From the NCBI GenBank assembly GCA_035519195.1, contig DATIWU010000062.1, forward strand, positions 757-64,756: a stretch of 64,000 nt of DNA, written 5' to 3'. The notes beneath the pieces are model-generated. The model did not search any database, was not told the DNA's origin, and worked only from the letters and a program-made list of their open reading frames with translations. Each line of letters begins with the position of its first letter. Position 1 is the first letter of the stretch. The position numbers and the translations under genes are program-made. Origin of the DNA: Gemmatimonadales bacterium (GTDB lineage: Bacteria; Gemmatimonadota; Gemmatimonadetes; Gemmatimonadales; GWC2-71-9). Shown one piece after another: positions 9,601 to 56,432 of the stretch.

Positions 9601-10748
9601 GTCGCCCGCTCGATCGCCGGCTGGTGGTGCTGCTCTGCGTCGCCGCGTGCCACCGGACGGAGGCACGCCCGGCGTACGACGTCGCGCCGGTAGGGCGCGG
9701 CGACATCATCGTGTCCGTGACCGCGTCGGGCGTGATCCAGCCCGTGCTCACGCTCTCCGTCAAGTCCAAGGCGTCGGGAGAGATTCTCGAGCAGCCGGTC
9801 CAGACCGGAGACGAGGTCAAAAAGGGCCAGCTGCTGGCGCGCATCGATCCGCGTATTCCCCAGAACAATCTGACGCAGGCACAGGCAAGCCTGACGGTCG
9901 CGCAGGCGCAGCTCGACAACGCCACCGCGCAGCTCAAGCGCTCGCAGTCGTTGTATCAGACGCAGTCGATTACCAAGGCGGGATTGGATTCGGCCCAACT
10001 TTCCGCCGCGACCGCGCGGGCCGCGGTGGCCACGGCGAGCGCGGATTTGCAAACGGCGAAGGATGCGATGGAAGACACGCACGTCCGGTCGCCCATCAAC
10101 GGCACGATCCTCGAGCTCGACGCGGTGCTCGGGACGATCATCTCGAGCCCCACGAACGACGTGGGCGGCGGCACGCTGATCTTGAAGATGGCGAACCTCG
10201 ACACGGTGCAGGTGTCGGCGCTGGTCGATGAAACCGACGTCGGGAAGGTCAAGGCGGGCTCGCCGGTGACCATCACGGTCGACGCGTTCCCGAACCGCAC
10301 GTTCGATGGCACCGTCCTGAAGATCGAGCCACAGGCGCAGGTCACTCAGAATGTGACCATGTTCCCCGTGCAGGTGAACATCCTGAACCCGGGCCACGTG
10401 CTCAAGCCGGGGATGAATACGGAAGTCGAGATCCACGTGGGCGAGCGTCACAACGTGCTCGCGATTCCGAACGCGGCGCTCCGGACTCCGCACGACGTCG
10501 CCTCCGCGGCCGCGGTGCTCCGGGTCAGCCCGGCGGCCGTGCAGCAGCAGGTCGCCGTCGCGACGCGGGATTCGGCGGCCGAAGCGGCGAGCGGCGACGG
10601 CAGCTACATCGTGTTCACGAGCGAGAACCGCCAGATCGCCCCGCGCGCGATCAAGACCGGGCTGACGGACCAGGACCGCATCGAGATCCTCAGTGGGCTG
10701 ACCGAGCGGGATACGGTCGTATTGCTGACCAGTGGCGGGTCGCCCTAG
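9597..10748 (+). CDS. periplasmic adaptor (membrane fusion protein), short paralog of the preceding gene
   Basis: Colinear with the upstream adaptor over about 280 aa and highly similar by eye ([19 protein letters not shown] identical). GTGA overlap with the upstream stop. Confidence 0.85.
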   Translation: MSRPLDRRLVVLLCVAACHRTEARPAYDVAPVGRGDIIVSVTASGVIQPVLTLSVKSKASGEILEQPVQTGDEVKKGQLLARIDPRIPQNNLTQAQASLTVAQAQLDNATAQLKRSQSLYQTQSITKAGLDSAQLSAATARAAVATASADLQTAKDAMEDTHVRSPINGTILELDAVLGTIISSPTNDVGGGTLILKMANLDTVQVSALVDETDVGKVKAGSPVTITVDAFPNRTFDGTVLKIEPQAQVTQNVTMFPVQVNILNPGHVLKPGMNTEVEIHVGERHNVLAIPNAALRTPHDVASAAAVLRVSPAAVQQQVAVATRDSAAEAASGDGSYIVFTSENRQIAPRAIKTGLTDQDRIEILSGLTERDTVVLLTSGGSP

Positions 10749-41684: not shown

Positions 41685-42803
41685 ATGACCGCTCCTGACC
41701 GCCCCACCCTGCACAACTGGTTGCACCACTGGCAAGACGAGCTGGATGCCGCCTACCTCTACGTCGCCCTCGCGTCGGAAGAAGCCGACCCGAGAAAGCG
41801 GGAAATCTATCGCCAGCTGGCGCAGGTGGAGCGACGGCACACGGACCTCTGGGCCAAGCTGCTGGCGGCCAACGGCCACCCCGTCCCCGCCCAGGAACGT
41901 CCCTCGCTGTCCGCGCGGATCATGGCCTGGCTCGGCCGGCGCTTCGGCCCGCGCTATCTGCTCCCGCTGCTGCTGCGCGAGGAAGGACGCGAGGTCAAAG
42001 GGTACATGGACCTGCACTCGGCATCCCGTGCCGAGGACGCGCGTCAGGTCTCCCTGACGCTGGCACGAGAGTCGGCCGAACACGCCGGCACGCTCGCGAG
42101 CCTCGCGGGCCAGAGCGCCGAGCCCTGGCACCGAACGGAATCCGGCGGATTTCTCCGCAACGTCGTGTATGGCTTCAACGACGGGTTGACCGCGAACTTT
42201 GGCCTGGTCGCGGGAGTGATCGGCGCATCGGTCGCTCCCCACGTCATCCTGGTCTCCGGGATTGCCGGCATGATCGCCGACGCATTGTCGATGGGCGCGT
42301 CGGGATATCTCGCGGCCAAGAGCGAGCAGGAAGTGTATGCGCACGAGATCGCGATGGAGAAAGAAGAGATCCGGCTGATGCCGGACGTGGAGCAGGAAGA
42401 GCTGACGCTGCTGTATCAGGCCAAGGGCGTCGACCCCCGCACCGCGCGGCGCATGTCGGAAGAAGTCATGCGGGACCCGCAGCGGGCGCTGGGCGAGCAG
42501 GTACGCGAAGAGCTGAAGATCGGCGAAGCGCAGGCGACGCCATTCCGCGAGGGGTGGCTGACCGGCGCGGCCACCGCGGTGGGCGCATTCATTCCGGTTG
42601 CCCCGTTCCTGGTGTTTTCCGGACACGCGGCCGCCTGGATCGCATTCGTTATCGCGATGGCGTCGCACTTTCTCGTGGGCGGCGCCCGCAGTCTGTTCAC
42701 CGGCCGCGGAATGCTGCGGAGCGGGCTGGATATGTTCGTCGTGGGGTTGGGAGTGGCCGCCGTGGGGTACGTGGTCGGGGATCTGATAGCGAAGGTTCTC
42801 TAG
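41685..42803 (+). CDS. VIT1/CCC1-family iron/manganese transporter with an N-terminal ferritin-like domain
   Basis: N-terminal EL.AAYLY...E.RH ferritin-like motifs. C-terminal VYGFNDGLTANFGLVAGV...GASGYLA and 5 TM segments. Confidence 0.8.
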   Translation: MTAPDRPTLHNWLHHWQDELDAAYLYVALASEEADPRKREIYRQLAQVERRHTDLWAKLLAANGHPVPAQERPSLSARIMAWLGRRFGPRYLLPLLLREEGREVKGYMDLHSASRAEDARQVSLTLARESAEHAGTLASLAGQSAEPWHRTESGGFLRNVVYGFNDGLTANFGLVAGVIGASVAPHVILVSGIAGMIADALSMGASGYLAAKSEQEVYAHEIAMEKEEIRLMPDVEQEELTLLYQAKGVDPRTARRMSEEVMRDPQRALGEQVREELKIGEAQATPFREGWLTGAATAVGAFIPVAPFLVFSGHAAAWIAFVIAMASHFLVGGARSLFTGRGMLRSGLDMFVVGLGVAAVGYVVGDLIAKVL

Positions 42804-45220
42804 ACCACGAGATTCAACAGCCGGTCCTGCACGTAGATCGTCTTCTTGACCTTCCTGCCCTCCACGAATTTCTGTACCGTGCCGTCGGCGAGCGCGAGCG
42901 CCGCAATCGCTCCCTCGGCGAGGCCGCGGGGCACGGTCAGGCGCGAGCGCACTTTGCCGTTCACCTGAACCGCGATCTCGACATCGCCGGACGCGGCGAG
43001 GCGTTCGTCGTAGGCCGGCCAGCGGGCCGCGAACACCGACGTGCGGTGCCCCATTCGCTCCCACAGCTCCTCCGCGAGGTGCGGAGCAAACGGCGCGAGC
43101 ATGACGAGCAGCGGCACGACGGCGCCCCGGACTTTCACGCCCGATTCGCGAGCGAGATTGACGTACTCCATCATGGCCGCGATCGCGGTGTTGTAGTCGA
43201 GCCGCTCGGTGTCTTCGGTCACCTTGCGGATCGTCTGATGCAGCTTGCGCTCGATGTCCTGCGGCAAGGCGCCGTCTGATTCGGCGGCCGTTTCGTGCGC
43301 GAGCAGCCACACCTTGTCGAGGAACCGGCGGATGCCCGTGATCCCCTCATCGCGGAAGTCACCGCCCTCCTGGAACGGGCCGAGAAACATCAGGTACATC
43401 CGGAACGTGTCCGCGCCCCACTTCTGGATGAAGGCGTCCGGAATGACCACGTTGCCCCGGGATTTGGACATCTTGGCGCCGTCCTTGATGATGAGGCCGT
43501 GCGCCCGGAGCTTCGGAAACGGTTCCTCGAAATCGATGTGGCCGAGGTCGTGCAGCACCATGCTGATGAACCGCGAGTACAGGAGGTGAAGCACGGCGTG
43601 CTCGTTCCCGCCGATGTAGCTCGTCACCGGCAACCAGGTGCGCGTGCGCTCGCGGTCCCAGGGGCGATCCTCGATTTCGCTCGACGGATAGCGGAGGTAG
43701 TACCAGGATGAGTCGAGGAACGTGTCCGACACGTCGGTCTCGCGCCGGCCCATCGCCCCACAGCTGGGACAGGGCACGTAATACCATTCGCGATGGCGCG
43801 CGAGCGGGCTGACACCCGTGTCGTCGGGACGGAAATCCTCGATCAGCGGCAGCTCGACCGGGAGATCGTCCTCCGGTACTCCCACCGGTCCGCACCGGTC
43901 GCAATGGATGATGGGAATCGGCGGGCCCCAGTATCGCTGCCGCGAAATGCACCAGTCATGCAGCCGGAACTGCACGCGCGCGGTCGCGAGCCCCTGGCTA
44001 CCGAGCCATTCGACGATGCGCCGCTGCGCCACTTTGCAGCTCACGCCGTCGAATTGCCCCGAATTCACCAGCAACCCGTCCTCGGACTCGAGCGGCAGCG
44101 GATCATCGCCATGCCGGACCACCTGGACGATCGGCAACCCGAACTGCACCGCGAACTCGTAGTCCCGGCGATCGTGGGCCGGCACGGCCATGATCGCACC
44201 CGTGCCGTATTCCATCAGCACGTAGTCCGCGATCCAGACCGGGATGGACGCGCCGGTCGCGGGATTCCGAACGTACGAGCCGAGGAAGACCCCCGTCTTG
44301 GTCTTGTCGCCCACCTTGCGCGAGACGATGTCCTGCGCGGCGACCCGGCGCTGGTAGCGGTGAACACTCCCGCGCTGCTCCTCCGCCGTGAGCGCGTCCA
44401 CGAGCGGGTGCTCCGGGGCGACCACGAGGTACGTCGCGCCGAACACCGTGTCGGGACGAGTCGTGAACACGGTGATCGTTTCTCCGCTGGGCGCGGCGAA
44501 GACCAGCTCCGCTCCCTCGCTCCGGCCGATCCAGTTCCGCTGCATGGCGATGGTGCTGCTGGACCAGTCGAGCGTGTCGAGATTATCGAGCAGTCGCTGG
44601 GCGTACTTCGTGATCGCGAAGAACCACTGTTCCAGGAATCGCTGCTCGACCTTGACGTCGGGATGGCGCTCACAATAACCGTTGATTACCTGCTCGTTCG
44701 CGATCACCGTCTTGCAGGAAGGGCACCAGTTGACGGCGGCCTTCTTGCGGAACGCGAGTCCGGCTTTGAAGAGCTGGAGAAACAGCCACTGGGTCCACTT
44801 GTAATAGCGGGGATCGGTGGTCGAAACTTCATGACGCCAGTCGAACATTCCCCCGAAGCGGCGCAGCTGACGCCGGAAGGTGGCGATATTCTGGGGAATG
44901 AGGCGGGCGGGATGAACGCCGATCGTCAACGCGTAATTCTCGGAGTGGATCCCGAACGCGTCGAAACCGATCGGCTCGAATACCTCATGCCCCTGGAGCC
45001 GCTTGAACCGGCCGTAGATGTCGGCGCCCGTGAAGGCGAACATGTTGCCCACGTGCAGCCCCTCGGCCGAGGGGTAGGGAAACATCATGAGGTTGTAGAA
45101 TGGCCGAGCCGGATGGCCCAGGTCGGGCTCGTTGGTGTGCGCCTCGTCCCAACGCTTCTGCCAGCGCGCTTCCACCTGCGCCGGATCGTAGACCGGCGTC
45201 GGATGCGTCGTGCTCGTCAT
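42800..45220 (-). CDS. leuS: leucine--tRNA ligase
   Basis: PYPSAEGLHVGN (HIGH-type) and KMSKSRGN (KMSKS) motifs. 806 aa. Confidence 0.95.
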   Translation of the reverse strand: MTSTTHPTPVYDPAQVEARWQKRWDEAHTNEPDLGHPARPFYNLMMFPYPSAEGLHVGNMFAFTGADIYGRFKRLQGHEVFEPIGFDAFGIHSENYALTIGVHPARLIPQNIATFRRQLRRFGGMFDWRHEVSTTDPRYYKWTQWLFLQLFKAGLAFRKKAAVNWCPSCKTVIANEQVINGYCERHPDVKVEQRFLEQWFFAITKYAQRLLDNLDTLDWSSSTIAMQRNWIGRSEGAELVFAAPSGETITVFTTRPDTVFGATYLVVAPEHPLVDALTAEEQRGSVHRYQRRVAAQDIVSRKVGDKTKTGVFLGSYVRNPATGASIPVWIADYVLMEYGTGAIMAVPAHDRRDYEFAVQFGLPIVQVVRHGDDPLPLESEDGLLVNSGQFDGVSCKVAQRRIVEWLGSQGLATARVQFRLHDWCISRQRYWGPPIPIIHCDRCGPVGVPEDDLPVELPLIEDFRPDDTGVSPLARHREWYYVPCPSCGAMGRRETDVSDTFLDSSWYYLRYPSSEIEDRPWDRERTRTWLPVTSYIGGNEHAVLHLLYSRFISMVLHDLGHIDFEEPFPKLRAHGLIIKDGAKMSKSRGNVVIPDAFIQKWGADTFRMYLMFLGPFQEGGDFRDEGITGIRRFLDKVWLLAHETAAESDGALPQDIERKLHQTIRKVTEDTERLDYNTAIAAMMEYVNLARESGVKVRGAVVPLLVMLAPFAPHLAEELWERMGHRTSVFAARWPAYDERLAASGDVEIAVQVNGKVRSRLTVPRGLAEGAIAALALADGTVQKFVEGRKVKKTIYVQDRLLNLVV

Positions 45221-50593: not shown

Positions 50594-51669
50594 GCCATCG
50601 CTTTCTCGACGAGCCCCAGCAGCTCCTGAAGCGCCGGAACCGTGTGGTCCCCCATGTGGCCGATGCGAATCGTCGAGTCCTTCAGCTCGCCATAGCCGGA
50701 CCCGATCACCCAGCCCTGCTTCTTGAGAGCGCTGACAATGCCCGCCGCGCGACCCTCGGGAACTCGGAGACAGGAGACCGTCCAGCTCCGCCGGCCTTCG
50801 GGCGGCAGGTACTCGATGCCACGTTGGGCGCTCCACTGTTCCACGGCGCGGCGCATGGCATCGTGGCGCCGCCAGCGCGCTTCCACTCCGCCTTCCTGCT
50901 CGATTCTCGCGAGCTGGACTTCGAGCGCATAGAAGAGCGACAGCGCCGGCGTATTGGTGGGCTGCGCCTTCCGCGTCGCCTCTTCGAACGTGACGAGGTC
51001 GAAGTATTGCCCGCGTCCCGAGAGCGTCCGGGCGCGCTGCCGCATCCGTTCGGAGGCGACCCCCAGGGCGAGCCCGGGAGGCAGCGCCAGCGCCTTTTGC
51101 GATCCTGTGAAAGTGAAGTCGAGCCCCCAGTGCTCCGGCTCAACGGGTGAGCCGGCGAGCGACGTGACCGCGTCCACCAGCACGAGCACGTCGTCGAATT
51201 CGTGGACCACCTGCGCGAGCGCCGCGACGTCCTGCAGGACTCCCGTCGAGGTCTCGGAGTGCACGAGCGTCACCGCGTCCACGGGAGTGCGGCGCAGCGC
51301 ATCCCGGAGCATGTCGGGCTCGACCGCGCAGCCGAGCGGAACGTCGAGCCGGATGGTTTCCTTGCCGCACGCGCCGACCAACCGGGCGAACCGGTCGCTG
51401 AACGAGCCGTTCACGAGCGACAGCGCGCGGCGGCGCACGCCGTTGCGCACGGCCATTTCCATGAACCCCGTGGCGGATGCCGTTCCTACGAGCACCGGCT
51501 CCCTGGAACGGAACATCTGACCCAAACGCGGCGCGATTCCCGCGAGCAGCGCTTCCATGGCGCTCGAGCGATGTCCGATCATCGGCCGCTGCATGGCCGC
51601 GAGCACGTCAGGATGGACATCCGTCGGCCCCGGCAGGAAAAACCGCCCGAAGGCTGGCGTGTCAGTCAT
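50590..51669 (-). CDS. class-V pyridoxal-phosphate aminotransferase (serine-glyoxylate/alanine-glyoxylate type; plausible phosphoserine aminotransferase role)
   Basis: FLPGPTDVHPDVL..., TGSQKALALPPG (PLP Lys). 359 aa. Coupled to serA. Confidence 0.8.
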   Translation of the reverse strand: MTDTPAFGRFFLPGPTDVHPDVLAAMQRPMIGHRSSAMEALLAGIAPRLGQMFRSREPVLVGTASATGFMEMAVRNGVRRRALSLVNGSFSDRFARLVGACGKETIRLDVPLGCAVEPDMLRDALRRTPVDAVTLVHSETSTGVLQDVAALAQVVHEFDDVLVLVDAVTSLAGSPVEPEHWGLDFTFTGSQKALALPPGLALGVASERMRQRARTLSGRGQYFDLVTFEEATRKAQPTNTPALSLFYALEVQLARIEQEGGVEARWRRHDAMRRAVEQWSAQRGIEYLPPEGRRSWTVSCLRVPEGRAAGIVSALKKQGWVIGSGYGELKDSTIRIGHMGDHTVPALQELLGLVEKAMA

Positions 51670-52330
51670 GTGGCGCCGTGGCGAGCTCTCGAATGAAGCG
51701 CGGTTCGACCACTTCCGCCGTCTGGACCAGCCGCACCCCTTCCTCCGCCCACTCCTTGAGAAGGTGCTGAGCCGCGGTGCGGTCGATGGGTTTCATGGCA
51801 TCCGTCACCGCGAACAGCCGCGTTTGCGGACGGCGGGCGAGCAGACCTTCGATGGCAAACCGATCGCACACGTCGAGCGCGACACCATACAGGACGATGT
51901 CCTCCGGATCGAGTACCTGCAGCACGATGTCGACGTTCGCGTTCGTGAATACGTCGAAGCGGTGCTTCAGGAACAGAATGTCGCCACGGTGAGCGCGGAC
52001 TCGCTCCGCGAGAAGAGACGGATCGGCCCGCACCGGCTCGATGACGAGCGGGTCCACGAGGCGCGTCTCGGGAATTTTCTCTTGCCCCGGCGTGTCTCGC
52101 ATGCAGTGCGGCGGAAAGGTGGTTCTCCAATCGGGGGCGTCGGACAGCTCGGCATGACCCGCGATGTGATCGTCCGCACTGGCCACGATCCGGATGCCGT
52201 ACTGATGCGCGAAATTCGTGAGTTGCGCGAGTCGCGGGATGATGGCCTCGGACTCGGGGACGTACAGTTTTCCCTCGGACTTCAGGAAATCGTACTGGGT
52301 ATCGACATCCCAGAAGATCAGTCGTGGCAT
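51662..52330 (-). CDS. isochorismatase-family cysteine hydrolase (nicotinamidase-like)
   Basis: LIFWDVDTQYDF, HC (PPHCMRDTPG), and a GVALDVC-type catalytic Cys context. SD GGAG 8 nt upstream. Confidence 0.75.
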   Translation of the reverse strand: MPRLIFWDVDTQYDFLKSEGKLYVPESEAIIPRLAQLTNFAHQYGIRIVASADDHIAGHAELSDAPDWRTTFPPHCMRDTPGQEKIPETRLVDPLVIEPVRADPSLLAERVRAHRGDILFLKHRFDVFTNANVDIVLQVLDPEDIVLYGVALDVCDRFAIEGLLARRPQTRLFAVTDAMKPIDRTAAQHLLKEWAEEGVRLVQTAEVVEPRFIRELATAPHD

Positions 52331-52370
52331 CGCGCGGAATCTCCAAAGCGCGGATCGGTCGTGTCAACGG

Positions 52371-52399
52371 TTGACAGCATGAATGTGTAAGCCTACTTT
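52371..52399 (+). promoter_or_regulatory. candidate sigma70-like promoter TTGACA-17-TACTTT
   Basis: Consensus -35 at 52371-52376, a 17-nt spacer, and TAnnnT at 52394-52399. The predicted TSS coincides with ATG 52407. Confidence 0.5.
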
Positions 52400-52406
52400 C
52401 TGGCCC

Positions 52407-52499
52407 ATGCAGCCTCGGGCTCGTCTCGTGTGTTGTTGCTGTTGTCGCCGCCAACTCGAGGGTTGGACGGATGCCTTCAGCTCGCCCGTGACGACATGA
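52407..52499 (+). CDS. 30-codon leader peptide MQPRARLVCCCCCRRQLEGWTDAFSSPVTT with five consecutive Cys codons (putative attenuator leader, leaderless mRNA)
   Basis: Codons tgt tgt tgc tgt tgt at 52431-52445. No SD. The ATG sits at the predicted TSS. Below the ORF-track size cutoff. Confidence 0.5.
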   Translation: MQPRARLVCCCCCRRQLEGWTDAFSSPVTT

Positions 52500-52531
52500 G
52501 GACCTAGCACCTCTTCGACCACAGCAGAGAC

Positions 52532-52568
52532 AAAGGCCCGGCCACCCTCAAGTGGCCGGGCCTTTTTT
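52532..52568 (+). terminator. Rho-independent terminator (attenuator terminator)
   Basis: An 11-bp GC-rich stem ggcccggccac/gtggccgggcc (52535-45 with 52552-62), a 6-nt loop, and a T6 tract at 52563-68 preceded by AAA. Confidence 0.8.
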
Positions 52569-52653
52569 GCGCCGGCCAGCGAACCGCGGAGCGCTGATGC
52601 AATTGAGCGACGTGAATTGGTATCTCGGCGATCAACCTGGACAGGAACGCCTG

Positions 52654-53889
52654 ATGAGCATCTCGGGTCGGGGATGGGCGCGTTTGCTTGGCACGGCGAG
52701 CGTCTGGACGTGCGGACTGGCCGTTCCATCCAACCGAGCTCTCGGGCAGAGCGATTCGGTGCCCCCGGCGACGGCGGGTCCGGGCGGCTTCACGATTCAG
52801 TCGCGCGAGGGCAGCTTCCAATTCCGGCTGAGAGGATACATCCAGGCCGACGGCCGCTTCTTTCCCGACGTGCCCGCAAATTTCGGAGCCAGCACATTCC
52901 TGCTCCGCCGCGCACGGCCCGTCATGGACGTGACTACGTGGCGGTACTTCACGCTGCGTCTCACGCCGGACTTCGGTCAGGGGAAGGTCACCCTGTTTGA
53001 TGCCTATCTGGATTTCCGTCCCGTGTCCCACGCGGGCCTGCGCTTCGGCAAGATGAAACCCCCGGTTGGTCTCGAGCGTCTTCAGCCAGCGATCGACCTG
53101 CGGTTTGCGGAACGCGCCCTGCCGACCAATCTCGTGCCGACGAGAGACGTGGGCGCGCAGCTGTTTTACGAGAAGCCGATCGTGTCGGTCGCCGCGGGAG
53201 TGTTCAACGGCGTCCCGGATTTTGGGAATGGGGACATCGACGGCACGAACGACAAGGATTTCGAGGCTCGCGTCTTCTTCCACGTGCCACACGTCGGCGT
53301 CGGGATCGCGGGCACCACCGGACAGGAGCACGGAACGATCACTGCCCCCGCCCTGCCGAGCTATGTGACCCCGGGCCAGCAACCCATGTTTCGGTATCGG
53401 GACACTACGATCGCGAACGGGACGCGCAGCCGCATCACTCCGCAAGGCTACTTCTATTTCGGCCCGTTCGGCCTTCTGGGCGAATACGTGCGGTCCGCGC
53501 AGCGCGTGAGCCGCACTACCGCCACGGCTGACCTCGCCAACTCGAGCTGGCAAATCGCCGCGTCGGTGTTTGTCACGGGCGAACGGGCGTCATTTGCGAC
53601 CGTGTCCCCGCGCCACAAGTTCGATCCCGCGGCGCACCACTGGGGCGCCATCGAGCTGGCGGCCCGCTACAGTGAGCTCTCGATCGACCCGGCCGCGTTC
53701 CCGACATTCGCGAATGTCGCGAACTCCCCGACCAAGACGACCGCGTGGGCGGTGGGGGCCACCTGGCACCTCGCGCCCGCCGTGAAGATCGCACTGAACT
53801 ACGAACTGGCCCAATTCTCGGGAGGAGCCGCGGGCGGTGACCGCGCGCCCGAGCATTTCCTCGTCACTCGATTCCAACAGGCGTTCTGA
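52654..53889 (+). CDS. OprO/OprP-family anion-selective porin
   Basis: Signal MSISGRGWARLLGTASVWTCGLAV.... FQFRLRGYIQADGRFF and FGKMKPPVGLERL motifs of the Porin_O_P family. C-terminal ...TRFQQAF. Confidence 0.8.
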   Translation: MSISGRGWARLLGTASVWTCGLAVPSNRALGQSDSVPPATAGPGGFTIQSREGSFQFRLRGYIQADGRFFPDVPANFGASTFLLRRARPVMDVTTWRYFTLRLTPDFGQGKVTLFDAYLDFRPVSHAGLRFGKMKPPVGLERLQPAIDLRFAERALPTNLVPTRDVGAQLFYEKPIVSVAAGVFNGVPDFGNGDIDGTNDKDFEARVFFHVPHVGVGIAGTTGQEHGTITAPALPSYVTPGQQPMFRYRDTTIANGTRSRITPQGYFYFGPFGLLGEYVRSAQRVSRTTATADLANSSWQIAASVFVTGERASFATVSPRHKFDPAAHHWGAIELAARYSELSIDPAAFPTFANVANSPTKTTAWAVGATWHLAPAVKIALNYELAQFSGGAAGGDRAPEHFLVTRFQQAF

Positions 53890-53896
53890 GCCCGCG

Positions 53897-54775
53897 ATGA
53901 CTACGGCACTTCTCGTTCTCGTCCTCATCACCCTCCTCGCCGCCACGGTCAACGGGGCGCTGGGGTATGGGTTTTCCTCGATCACCGTTCCGGTGGCGCT
54001 GCTGTTTTATACGAACCGCGTGCTCAATCCCGCGCTCGTCTGGATCGAGGTCGTCCTGAATGCGTACGTGCTGTGGGTGAATCGCGCGAGCATCCCGAAT
54101 GTCTGGCGCCGGGTATTGCCCATGGTCGTCGGACTCGCCCCCGGGGTTGTGATCGGGACTTCGATTCTGCATCGCGTCCAGCCGAGCTGGCTCAAGCTCA
54201 TCACGTTCATCGTGCTGCTGCCCTTGATTCTGCTCCAGGCCGCGGGCTTTCGTCGTCCCATCCGGGCCGAGCGCCGCGCCGGCCTGGCCTTCGGCGGCGG
54301 ACTCGGCGTGCTCTATGCCGTGACGACGATCTCGGGACCACCACTCGCCGTCATGCTGTCGAACCAGGGACTCACGAAACGGGATTTCCGGGCCGGTCTG
54401 GGACTGGTACGGTTGGCGGAGTCCACATTCACCGCCATCGCGTACTACTTCGCGCACATGTTCACGAGAGAAAGCGCGGGGCTGCTGCCGTACATCCTGC
54501 CGAGTCTCGCGATCGGCATCCCGGCCGGGGTGCAGTTGATCAAGCGCGTGCGGCCGGAGACGTTCCGGCGTATCTGCATGAGCTTCGACGCGTGGGTGGT
54601 GGGATTCGGGATTTCGACGTTGTTGCAGCAGCTGCACATCATCGAGGGCGGAGCGGCGTTCTCGGTCCTCGCGGGCGTGGGCACGCTCGACCTGTGGCTC
54701 TTGTACCGTTTCTTCAGCAGGTTGCCCGAGATCCCCAGGGAATCGGAGCGCGAGCTCGCCCCGGTGACAAACTAG
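53897..54775 (+). CDS. TauE/SafE (TSUP) family anion permease
   Basis: Eight hydrophobic helices and the N-terminal motif VNGALGYGFSSITVP typical of the family. Starts 7 nt after the porin stop. Confidence 0.85.
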   Translation: MTTALLVLVLITLLAATVNGALGYGFSSITVPVALLFYTNRVLNPALVWIEVVLNAYVLWVNRASIPNVWRRVLPMVVGLAPGVVIGTSILHRVQPSWLKLITFIVLLPLILLQAAGFRRPIRAERRAGLAFGGGLGVLYAVTTISGPPLAVMLSNQGLTKRDFRAGLGLVRLAESTFTAIAYYFAHMFTRESAGLLPYILPSLAIGIPAGVQLIKRVRPETFRRICMSFDAWVVGFGISTLLQQLHIIEGGAAFSVLAGVGTLDLWLLYRFFSRLPEIPRESERELAPVTN

Positions 54776-55266
54776 AACCGGAGCACGACCGCCACTTCAT
54801 CGCAGCAGTTCTGGCGCGGGCAGCGGGCGCAGTCCGCCCACACCTTCAGCGGGAAGTGCTCCCGGTCTGAAGCTTCGAAGCCGAGATTCAGAAAGAATGC
54901 GGGCTTGCGGGTGAGTGCCAGGACCTCGCGAATTCCCGCACGCCGCGCTTCCTCGATCAGGGCAAGCGTGAGCGCCCGCCCGATGCCCTGCCCCTGATGG
55001 CTCGCGGACACCGCGAGGGCGCCCAGCTCCGCGAGCTCCCGCGAGTAGACCTTGAGCGAGGCACATCCGACGATCGCTCCCTCACGTTCCGCCACCACGT
55101 ATTCCTTGATGTGCCGGCAGAGGTCGTAGTTGCTGCGCGGCAGCAGATCCCCCGTGGCCACGTACGGAGCCATGAGCGACTCGAGCCCCGGCACGTCAGC
55201 CAGGTTCGCCGGCCGAACGGCGGGACTGACCGCCAGGACGCGTGCGTGCAGCGCGCGGGCTGTCAC
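54772..55266 (-). CDS. short single-domain GNAT, N-acetylglutamate synthase-like
   Basis: Acetyl-CoA motif HQGQGIGRAL and C-terminal KVWADCARCPRQNCCDEVA. GTGA overlap with the argD stop. The listed 346-aa ORF is an artefactual extension. Confidence 0.7.
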   Translation of the reverse strand: MTARALHARVLAVSPAVRPANLADVPGLESLMAPYVATGDLLPRSNYDLCRHIKEYVVAEREGAIVGCASLKVYSRELAELGALAVSASHQGQGIGRALTLALIEEARRAGIREVLALTRKPAFFLNLGFEASDREHFPLKVWADCARCPRQNCCDEVAVVLRF

Positions 55267-56432
55267 GCGAGCACGGACTCGAGGATGGCGGCGCCGCGCC
55301 CCAAATCGTCCTGCGTCGCCACGAGCGGCGGCAAGAGGCGCATCACGTTCGGACCGGCACCCACGACGAGCAGTCCCCGCTCCCGTGCGGCCGTGATGTA
55401 GGGCGCCGCGGGTTCGACCAGCTCGATGCCCCACATGTAACCGCGGCCGCGGACCGCGCGCACCCGTCTGGCGCGTGCCGCGAGCGCGTTCAGTCGCGCG
55501 CCGAACCACTCGCCGTTGCAGCGCACGGCATCGAGGAATTCTGGCTGCGCGATGGTTCGCAGCACATCGAGCGCGACACTCGCGATGAAGGGACCGCCGC
55601 CGAACGTCGTGGCGTGATCCCCGGGCGCGAGCACCGCGCCAATGGCTTCCTTGAACAGCACGGCGCCCATGGGCAGGCCACCCGCGAGCGGTTTGGCGAG
55701 CGTGAGGATGTCGGGCACGACGCCGGCCTGCTCGTAGGCGAACAGCGTGCCTGTTCGGCCGAGCCCGCACTGCACCTCGTCGAAGATCAGCGCCACGCGG
55801 TGCGCGTCGCACAGCTCGCGCAGCCGCTTCAGGAATCCGAAATCGATCGGCCGGATGCCTCCCTCGCCCTGCACCGGCTCGATGATGACCGCTCCCGTCG
55901 TCGGTGCGGTGACGGCGGCGTGCACGGCAGCCGCATCATCGAGCGGAACAATCTGGATTCCGGGGACGAGGGGCTCGAAGGGACGCCGGAAATCGGGCCG
56001 ATCGGTCGCGGCGAGCGAAGCGAACAGCCGGCCGTGAAACGCGCCGCTGAACGCAATGATGCCGGGCCGCCCTCCACCCGACCATTTCCGGGCGAACTTG
56101 AACGCGGCCTCGTTGGCTTCCGCGCCGGAATTGCAGAAGAAGACCTGATCCGCAAACGACAGCCGCACCAGCTCGGCGGCGAGCCGCTCGCCCGGCTCGG
56201 TCCGGTAAAGGTTCGACACGTGAATCAGGCCGGTCTCGAGGGCGCGCGCGATCGCGTCGCGCACCACCGGGTGGTTGTAGCCGAGCGCGTTGACGCCGAT
56301 CCCGGCGACGAAATCGAGATAGCGCTCCCCGTCCTGCCCGATGAGCTCGCATCCCTCGCCCCGCACGAAGACGGGGCCGACCCGCGCATAGACGTTCGCC
56401 AACACGGAGGCGGAAGCCTGCACGGCCGTCAC
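55263..56432 (-). CDS. argD: acetylornithine aminotransferase
   Basis: VFFCNSGAEANEAA, DEVQCGLGRTG, LAKPLAGGLP (PLP Lys). GTG 56432 overlaps the argB stop. Confidence 0.9.
   Translation of the reverse strand: MTAVQASASVLANVYARVGPVFVRGEGCELIGQDGERYLDFVAGIGVNALGYNHPVVRDAIARALETGLIHVSNLYRTEPGERLAAELVRLSFADQVFFCNSGAEANEAAFKFARKWSGGGRPGIIAFSGAFHGRLFASLAATDRPDFRRPFEPLVPGIQIVPLDDAAAVHAAVTAPTTGAVIIEPVQGEGGIRPIDFGFLKRLRELCDAHRVALIFDEVQCGLGRTGTLFAYEQAGVVPDILTLAKPLAGGLPMGAVLFKEAIGAVLAPGDHATTFGGGPFIASVALDVLRTIAQPEFLDAVRCNGEWFGARLNALAARARRVRAVRGRGYMWGIELVEPAAPYITAARERGLLVVGAGPNVMRLLPPLVATQDDLGRGAAILESVLA

Follow-up and report, generated by a model that had tools for sequence, protein, structure and literature searches.

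A predicted outer-membrane porin and TSUP permease behind a cysteine-codon leader: a candidate sulfate uptake operon of a Gemmatimonadales bacterium

The stretch of DNA analysed here (the window, to which all plain position numbers refer) comprises 64,000 nucleotides of contig DATIWU010000062.1 from a soil Gemmatimonadales bacterium, whose 2.6 Mb assembly, labelled G000 among the genomes compared, is 71% complete. It carries a porin gene followed by a permease gene, both behind a short open reading frame with a run of cysteine codons, and we discuss this locus as a candidate operon for sulfate uptake under cysteine control (Table 1). The porin runs from an ATG at 52654-52656 to a TGA at 53887-53889, and the permease from an ATG at 53897-53899 to a TAG at 54773-54775. 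A preliminary description of this DNA had placed the porin stop and the permease start 7 nucleotides apart, and re-reading the coordinates gave the same gap. Its family assignments held as well, as both Pfam scores exceed the gathering cut-offs: the porin is a member of PF07396 Porin_O_P (E 4.1e-22, 79.4 bits against a cut-off of 20.9, model positions 2-345 of 370) and the permease of PF01925 TauE (E 9.6e-25, 88.1 bits against 32.6, model positions 1-229 of 237). No NCBIfam model matched the porin or the permease. The description had also noted that a binding protein and ATP-binding cassette (ABC) components are absent, and this was borne out. The sulfate-binding protein model TIGR00971 found no match in G000 (71% complete), in its close relative G005 (98% complete), in G002 or in G006, and cysT, cysW and cysA, the other genes of a Sbp-CysTWA (SulT) importer, had no match at the window locus.

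Table 1. Features of the locus in the window and related genes on other contigs of the same genome
Feature	Position	Strand	Basis
Leader open reading frame, 30 codons, five consecutive Cys codons, MQPRARLVCCCCCRRQLEGWTDAFSSPVTT followed by a stop	52407..52499	+	sequence reading
Intrinsic terminator of the putative attenuator, GGCCCGGCCAC, loop, GTGGCCGGGCC, then TTTTTT	52525..52558	+	minimum-free-energy fold, 14-bp hairpin
Porin, 411 amino acids, outer membrane, Porin_O_P; predicted sulfate anion channel	52654..53889	+	Pfam, AlphaFold2/Foldseek, neighbourhoods
Permease, 292 amino acids, inner membrane, TSUP/TauE; predicted sulfate (possibly sulfite) importer	53897..54775	+	Pfam, slot, context
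Sat-CysC fusion (ATP sulfurylase and APS kinase)	C55:38346-40091		
Second Cys-rich leader, MTRRRTTICCKACRCTGCARSPWSGHDCGALSGNERT followed by a stop, 7 Cys in 37 codons	C147:~42775-42930		
SulP-family transporter gene	C31:196-1293		
SulP-family transporter gene	C149:18247-19338		

The two genes were said to lie directly behind a Cys-codon attenuator, and the leader reading frame and a terminator were indeed located upstream of them. The leader region folds better than 200 of 200 shuffled sequences, with a z of -3.4 for the whole leader, and the GC-rich hairpin with its T-run, seen in the minimum-free-energy fold, is kept in nine related leaders. A Cys-rich leader was found at the equivalent position in each genome of the genus (seven of seven), as well as in two populations from metagenomes, regardless of which genes stand behind it. 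An Rfam scan of 51500-55500 returned a single sub-threshold small RNA match, which lies on the terminator. A scan for consensus promoters and terminators came out empty, but it missed an obvious terminator and was disregarded in favour of folding. A genome-wide hunt for short reading frames with runs of Cys codons was given up as too noisy in this GC-rich genome.

The cargo behind this leader is exchanged within the genus. The window genome, G005 and G002 carry the porin with the TSUP permease and G006 carries TSUP alone; G001 and G003 carry the porin with sbp-cysT-cysW-cysA, and G004 has sbp-cysTWA alone, at a different locus. In five of the seven genomes the cassette occupies one slot, between the class-V aminotransferase gene of a serine operon and GNAT-argD. 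In G006 the TSUP gene stands beside the same serine operon, and GNAT-argD was unmatched within the 18 kb fetched. Genome-wide, the two importers are complementary, with four genomes having TSUP only, three having Sbp only, and none having both or neither. In a maximum-likelihood tree the three TSUP-linked porins and the two Sbp-linked porins of their congeners form one clade with 100% support, and this clade nests inside the Sbp-linked porins of Gemmatimonadota. Because the TSUP-linked porins are nested in this way, the porin-ABC arrangement is ancestral and the porin-TSUP arrangement derived. The non-homologous replacement at one site argues that TSUP does the job of Sbp-CysTWA, and that the porin serves either importer as an accessory module, independent of its partner. 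The preliminary description had named a lack of co-conservation in relatives as a point against its reading, and porin and TSUP are indeed not conserved as a pair: only three genomes of one genus have both, the leader is more often followed by TSUP without a porin, and the porin far more often accompanies an ABC importer. Such modularity lends the functional reading of the locus further strength and does not refute it.

The wider distribution of the porin was then surveyed. An orthologue was present in 7 of 41 related genomes, and a profile of these seven porins, searched against about 186,000 species genomes, yielded 220 relatives, of which the best 80 (44-80% identity) were examined; four of these lie on the very contigs of the congeners G005, G002, G001 and G003. 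Neighbouring genes were classed by tblastn with the Sbp, CysT, CysW and CysA of one congener as queries, whose identities were all confirmed by NCBIfam (517 bits for Sbp). Immediately 3' of the porin stands sbp in 69 of the best 80 loci, and these porins sit directly upstream of sbp-cysT-cysW(-cysA). TSUP follows in two, a cysA fragment in one and a contig end in one. Seven loci have another neighbour, and some of these still look sulfur-related: in one, a second copy of the porin follows a cys ABC operon, and another has DUF2292/YezD and NifS-like genes downstream. Of the 66 loci with enough flanking sequence, 30 have a regulator gene of the Rrf2 (CymR-like) type upstream. The porin branch is tied to sulfate importers, anciently, across at least eight phyla, as the 80 loci span Gemmatimonadota, Acidobacteriota/Thermoanaerobaculia, Myxococcota, Thermodesulfobacteriota, Methylomirabilota, Nitrospirota (Manganitrophus), Binatota, Verrucomicrobiota and Lentisphaerota. 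The neighbourhood survey proposed in the preliminary description had been aimed at TSUP partners and Cys leaders; TSUP partners proved rare (2 of 80), whereas sulfate ABC genes were the rule (69 of 80). From these gene neighbours we infer that the channel is selective for sulfate. We found no paper on a sulfate-linked or sulfate-selective OprO/P (Porin_O_P) porin in the literature.

The database labels tell a different story. Homologues of the porin are listed by JGI/NCBI as "phosphate-selective porin OprO/OprP" or plain "porin", and the permease family as "sulfite exporter TauE/SafE family protein". Taken together with the Pfam family names, these labels would make the locus a phosphate or pyrophosphate porin with a sulfite or sulfonate exporter of the TSUP family beside it by chance. 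This explanation was already disfavoured and we regard it as very improbable, as no pst or pho genes were seen near any of the 80 porin homologues, while 69 of them precede sulfate ABC genes. Moreover, TSUP takes the place of an importer in the same slot, and export of sulfite under cysteine starvation, which the Cys-codon leader would imply, makes no sense. The earlier claim that this porin branch serves a sulfur anion and not phosphate is thus supported, and the pst linkage expected of a phosphate porin did not appear, the linkage being to the Cys leader and to sulfate importers. A second Porin_O_P paralogue of G005 was considered as a pst-linked case and ruled out, as its neighbours are secreted proteins of no known function.

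The AlphaFold2 model of the porin, made from the 80-sequence alignment, has a pLDDT of 88.9 and a pTM of 0.84, and residues 1-33 are a signal peptide. The best PDB matches of the model in Foldseek are 4rjw, 4rjx and 2o4v (OprO/OprP), with TM 0.71-0.72, E of about 1e-20 and 18-19% identity. Residues were numbered after OprP by HMMER alignment to OprO, anchored on the F62Y/D114Y pair in 4rjx at this identity of just 18-19%, and counted as columns over the 80 porin sequences. The central phosphate-binding residues are D94, Y62, S124, S125, K121, K126, R34 and R133 (PMC5877670). R59 and R60 of OprP/OprO correspond to R85 and R86 of the window porin and R133 to R154, all of which are Arg in 80 of 80 sequences; K121 corresponds to R142 (Arg in 78 of 80) and D94 to D120 (Asp or Glu in 71 of 80). 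Position 62, Tyr in OprP and Phe in OprO, is R88 (Arg in 80 of 80), and position 114, Tyr in OprP and Asp in OprO, is K135 (Lys in 79 of 80). In the same distant alignment (18-19% identity), the S124 position is Ser in 75 of 80 and Pro in the window, and S125 is replaced by Ala, K126 by Thr and R34 by Tyr. In this alignment the Arg/Lys ladder that was to be compared with OprP and OprO appears to be retained in part: it is basic at R59, R60, R133 and K121 (as Arg), and K126 and R34 are not kept. Arg88 and Lys135 (OprP 62 and 114) were tried as a sulfate signature and rejected, since these genomes also carry Porin_O_P paralogues without sulfate linkage that have the same residues. R130, K133 and R142 differ from those paralogues, in what is a distant alignment.

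These residues bear on whether the porin prefers sulfate at all. It may be a non-selective or broadly anion-selective channel, co-expressed to raise the permeability of the outer membrane in sulfur starvation and with no preference for sulfate. The constriction basics R88 and K135 are common to paralogues without sulfate linkage, and OprP itself conducts sulfate and chloride to some extent (energetics studies listed in PMC12653301). We consider a non-selective channel unlikely, however, because the linkage to sulfate importers is tight and ancient, over at least eight phyla, and because 13 Arg/Lys positions are invariant in the 80 sequences, which fits a dedicated channel better.

The N-terminus of the porin was compared between the window (52654-52790) and two relatives (L010:9760-10011 and L011:8783-9040). 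Most Sbp-linked porins have an N-terminal periplasmic coiled coil of about 40 amino acids with the consensus ..LDQKVRILERxxEL..AAAK.., and it is absent from the three TSUP-linked porins (window, G005, G002) and from three Sbp-linked porins of Thermoanaerobaculia (L026, L073, L078).

The permease family is very large, but the subfamily of the window gene is narrow, as an exhaustive search of 1.8 billion cluster representatives gave only 652 matches at E <= 1e-10. Its close homologues, at 78-89% identity, occur in great abundance in soil metagenomes, and in two abundant soil populations TSUP by itself follows a Cys leader and a terminator, for example MRPTPLSCLVCCCSRPP... The genomic context was sampled for seven TSUP representatives. 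Four relative clusters adjoin cysH: the gene precedes TSUP in L149 (48% identity to the window TSUP; APS reductase TIGR02055, 248 bits) and in L166 and L167 (43%), and follows it with an overlap in L164 (57%) and L165 (47%). A fifth, L150 (59%), has TSUP after an Rrf2/CymR-like gene, and the contig of L155 (41%) is too short for context. A thiamine pyrophosphate enzyme beside the TSUP relative P0251 was considered as Xsc and rejected, at 89 bits against a cut-off of 676, and this context is uninformative. The window TSUP thus has the surroundings of a sulfate permease, namely control by a Cys leader, replacement of sbp-cysTWA, and relatives with cysH and Rrf2 neighbours.

TSUP-type sulfate uptake is already known. 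The CysZ protein of C. glutamicum (cg3112, DUF81/TSUP) is encoded in the cysIXHDNYZ operon and is required for growth on sulfate or sulfite below 5 mM, and its recognition as a TSUP-type sulfate permease dates from 2005 (PMC1266029). In 2024, a TauE homologue of P. fluorescens (TK06_RS10770) was reported to complement an E. coli ΔcysA mutant, and the Acidovorax homologue Ac3H11_578 to be cofit with sulfate adenylyltransferase (PMC11535334). The preliminary description had left the substrate among sulfate, thiosulfate, sulfite and sulfonate. This can be narrowed to sulfate, perhaps with sulfite as well, since the congener Sbp scores 517 bits as Sbp and 350 bits as CysP and the characterised TSUPs import sulfate (PMC1266029, PMC11535334). 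The direction of transport and the substrate of the window TSUP are likewise inferred.

A sulfur anion other than sulfate, such as thiosulfate, sulfite or an organosulfonate, appears a poor candidate, somewhat less probable than the non-selective porin. The TSUP family does include carriers of sulfite, sulfoacetate and toluenesulfonate, the C. glutamicum ΔcysZ mutant fails on sulfite as well (PMC1266029), and the binding protein that partners the porin in relatives scores above the CysP (thiosulfate) cut-off as well. Against this stand its much higher score as Sbp, the position of TSUP relatives beside cysH, whose step is specific to sulfate-derived adenosine 5'-phosphosulfate (APS) or its 3'-phosphorylated form (PAPS), the Sat-CysC encoded in the genome, and the finding of no adjacent sulfonate-degradation genes.

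Sulfate reduction is encoded elsewhere in the same genome. In addition to Sat-CysC, an operon of cysH, cysG and a sulfite reductase gene (sir) lies outside the window on contig C147. Directly upstream of it is the second Cys-rich leader, followed by a hairpin of GGGCCCGCTTCTCGGAGCGGGCC and TTTGCTTT with a T-rich tail. From this leader and hairpin, uptake and reduction appear to be under the same kind of control, which suggests a small cysteine-attenuation regulon. The Sat-CysC fusion gene follows a sugar-transferase gene, and a Cys leader is absent there.

Several observations concern the control region itself. The palindrome TGTCAAC-G-GTTGACA at 52362-52376 is retained in G005 and G002, its halves are separated by 8 nucleotides in G003, 17 in G001 and 25 in G006, and TTGACA alone survives at loci without the divergent serine operon. 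Since the halves drift apart and one persists alone, the palindrome resembles a pair of -35 boxes set back to back, which would serve divergent and probably leaderless transcripts, and not an operator. The leader motif GGGTTGGACGG (52462-52472, and the equivalent spot in L133 and L141) is conserved at the nucleotide level, although its reading frame differs among the leaders (..EGWTD.. in the window, ..RVGRI.. in L133), and it is similar to the terminator's 3' arm. It is therefore probably an RNA element, an antiterminator strand, rather than a peptide motif. In G005 a small DUF2292/YezD (OscA-like) reading frame lies on the minus strand between the leader terminator and the porin (L008:~9705-9900, Pfam 3.8e-17), and the same type of reading frame is seen in further genera (L013 and L095:9368-9601); in the window this spacer is 80 nucleotides long and has no DUF2292/YezD reading frame. 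Outside the genus, the porin-sbp-cysTWA operon is headed by an Rrf2/CymR-like gene and an AT-rich spacer where the genus has its Cys leader (for example L012:5884-6530 and L013:12425-13051, and in the 30 of 66 surveyed loci mentioned above), so that one cargo has two control devices.

Taken together, we think it likely that the locus is a cysteine-starvation-induced operon that takes up sulfate across both membranes. When Cys-tRNA is scarce, the ribosome would stall at the leader's run of five Cys codons, formation of the terminator would be prevented, and the porin and permease would be co-transcribed; the 7-nucleotide gap suggests that they are translationally coupled as well. Sulfate would pass the outer membrane through an OprO/OprP-like barrel with an Arg/Lys-lined constriction, and the inner membrane by TSUP, probably a secondary carrier doing what Sbp-CysTWA does in relatives. 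Sat-CysC would then activate the sulfate, and CysH and sulfite reductase would take the product to sulfide. The two-membrane route under cysteine control that the preliminary description proposed is upheld by the 69 of 80 porin loci, the slot swap behind the Cys leader and the cysH-linked TSUP relatives.

Some points weigh on the other side. Because two SulP-family genes are present in the genome, TSUP need not be the only route for sulfate and is not provably the sole one, and the genome is only 71% complete. The predicted selectivity of the porin branch is read from its gene neighbours, and a clean sequence signature of sulfate specificity is missing because paralogues without sulfate linkage share Arg/Lys at positions 62 and 114. 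One sampled TSUP relative (L151-L154, 50% identity) has no sulfur link. A more far-reaching version of the sulfate uptake reading is that the porin branch is truly sulfate-selective, a third specificity class beside OprP and OprO, that the module is interchangeable between importer types, and that the coiled coil is a docking or hand-over device for Sbp. Such docking would explain why the coiled coil was lost together with the ABC system in the three TSUP-linked porins, but we hold this version to be doubtful.

Our findings have some consequences for annotation. Across many phyla of soil and sediment, thousands of genes that carry the name phosphate-selective porin probably provide the outer-membrane part of sulfate assimilation, for which textbooks invoke general porins. 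The exchange of Sbp-CysTWA for TSUP behind one cysteine attenuator makes an unusually clean comparative case for sulfate import by this TSUP subfamily, and also for a porin that works independently of its inner-membrane partner. The locus offers a small two-gene system for asking why an OprP-type channel would favour sulfate over phosphate.

Compared with OprP and OprO of P. aeruginosa (PDB 2o4v, 4rjw), the window porin shares the Pfam family and the barrel fold, and in the distant alignment it appears to keep the basic R59/R60/R133/K121 (Arg here) and the acidic D94. It differs in being only 18-19% identical and, in that alignment, in having Arg for Tyr/Phe62 and Lys for Tyr/Asp114 and in not keeping S125, K126 and R34. 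In addition, its branch is under a Cys leader (Rrf2 in other genera) and not under Pho control, adjoins sulfate importers and not pst genes, and in most members has the N-terminal coiled coil. The leader resembles the trpL and hisL leader-peptide attenuators, where an intrinsic terminator follows a short reading frame in which codons of the regulated amino acid stand in a row, but it would sense cysteine and control transport genes.

The permease is comparable to CysZ, TK06_RS10770 and Ac3H11_578 in its Pfam family, its linkage to assimilatory sulfate reduction and its predicted role as a single-component stand-in for Sbp-CysTWA, a likeness of family and context. Unlike the window TSUP, CysZ operates in a cell without an outer membrane, and neither a dedicated porin nor a Cys-leader attenuator has been reported for any of the three. 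The closest known arrangement is the Sbp-CysTWA (SulT) operon with an upstream Porin_O_P gene, which is the common form. It has the same porin branch and presumed substrate and, within the genus, the same leader and slot, whereas the window has one secondary carrier in place of four ABC genes and a porin without the N-terminal coiled coil. What is specific here is the derived pairing of porin and TSUP behind a Cys-leader attenuator, together with a cassette that is modular in four ways within one genus.

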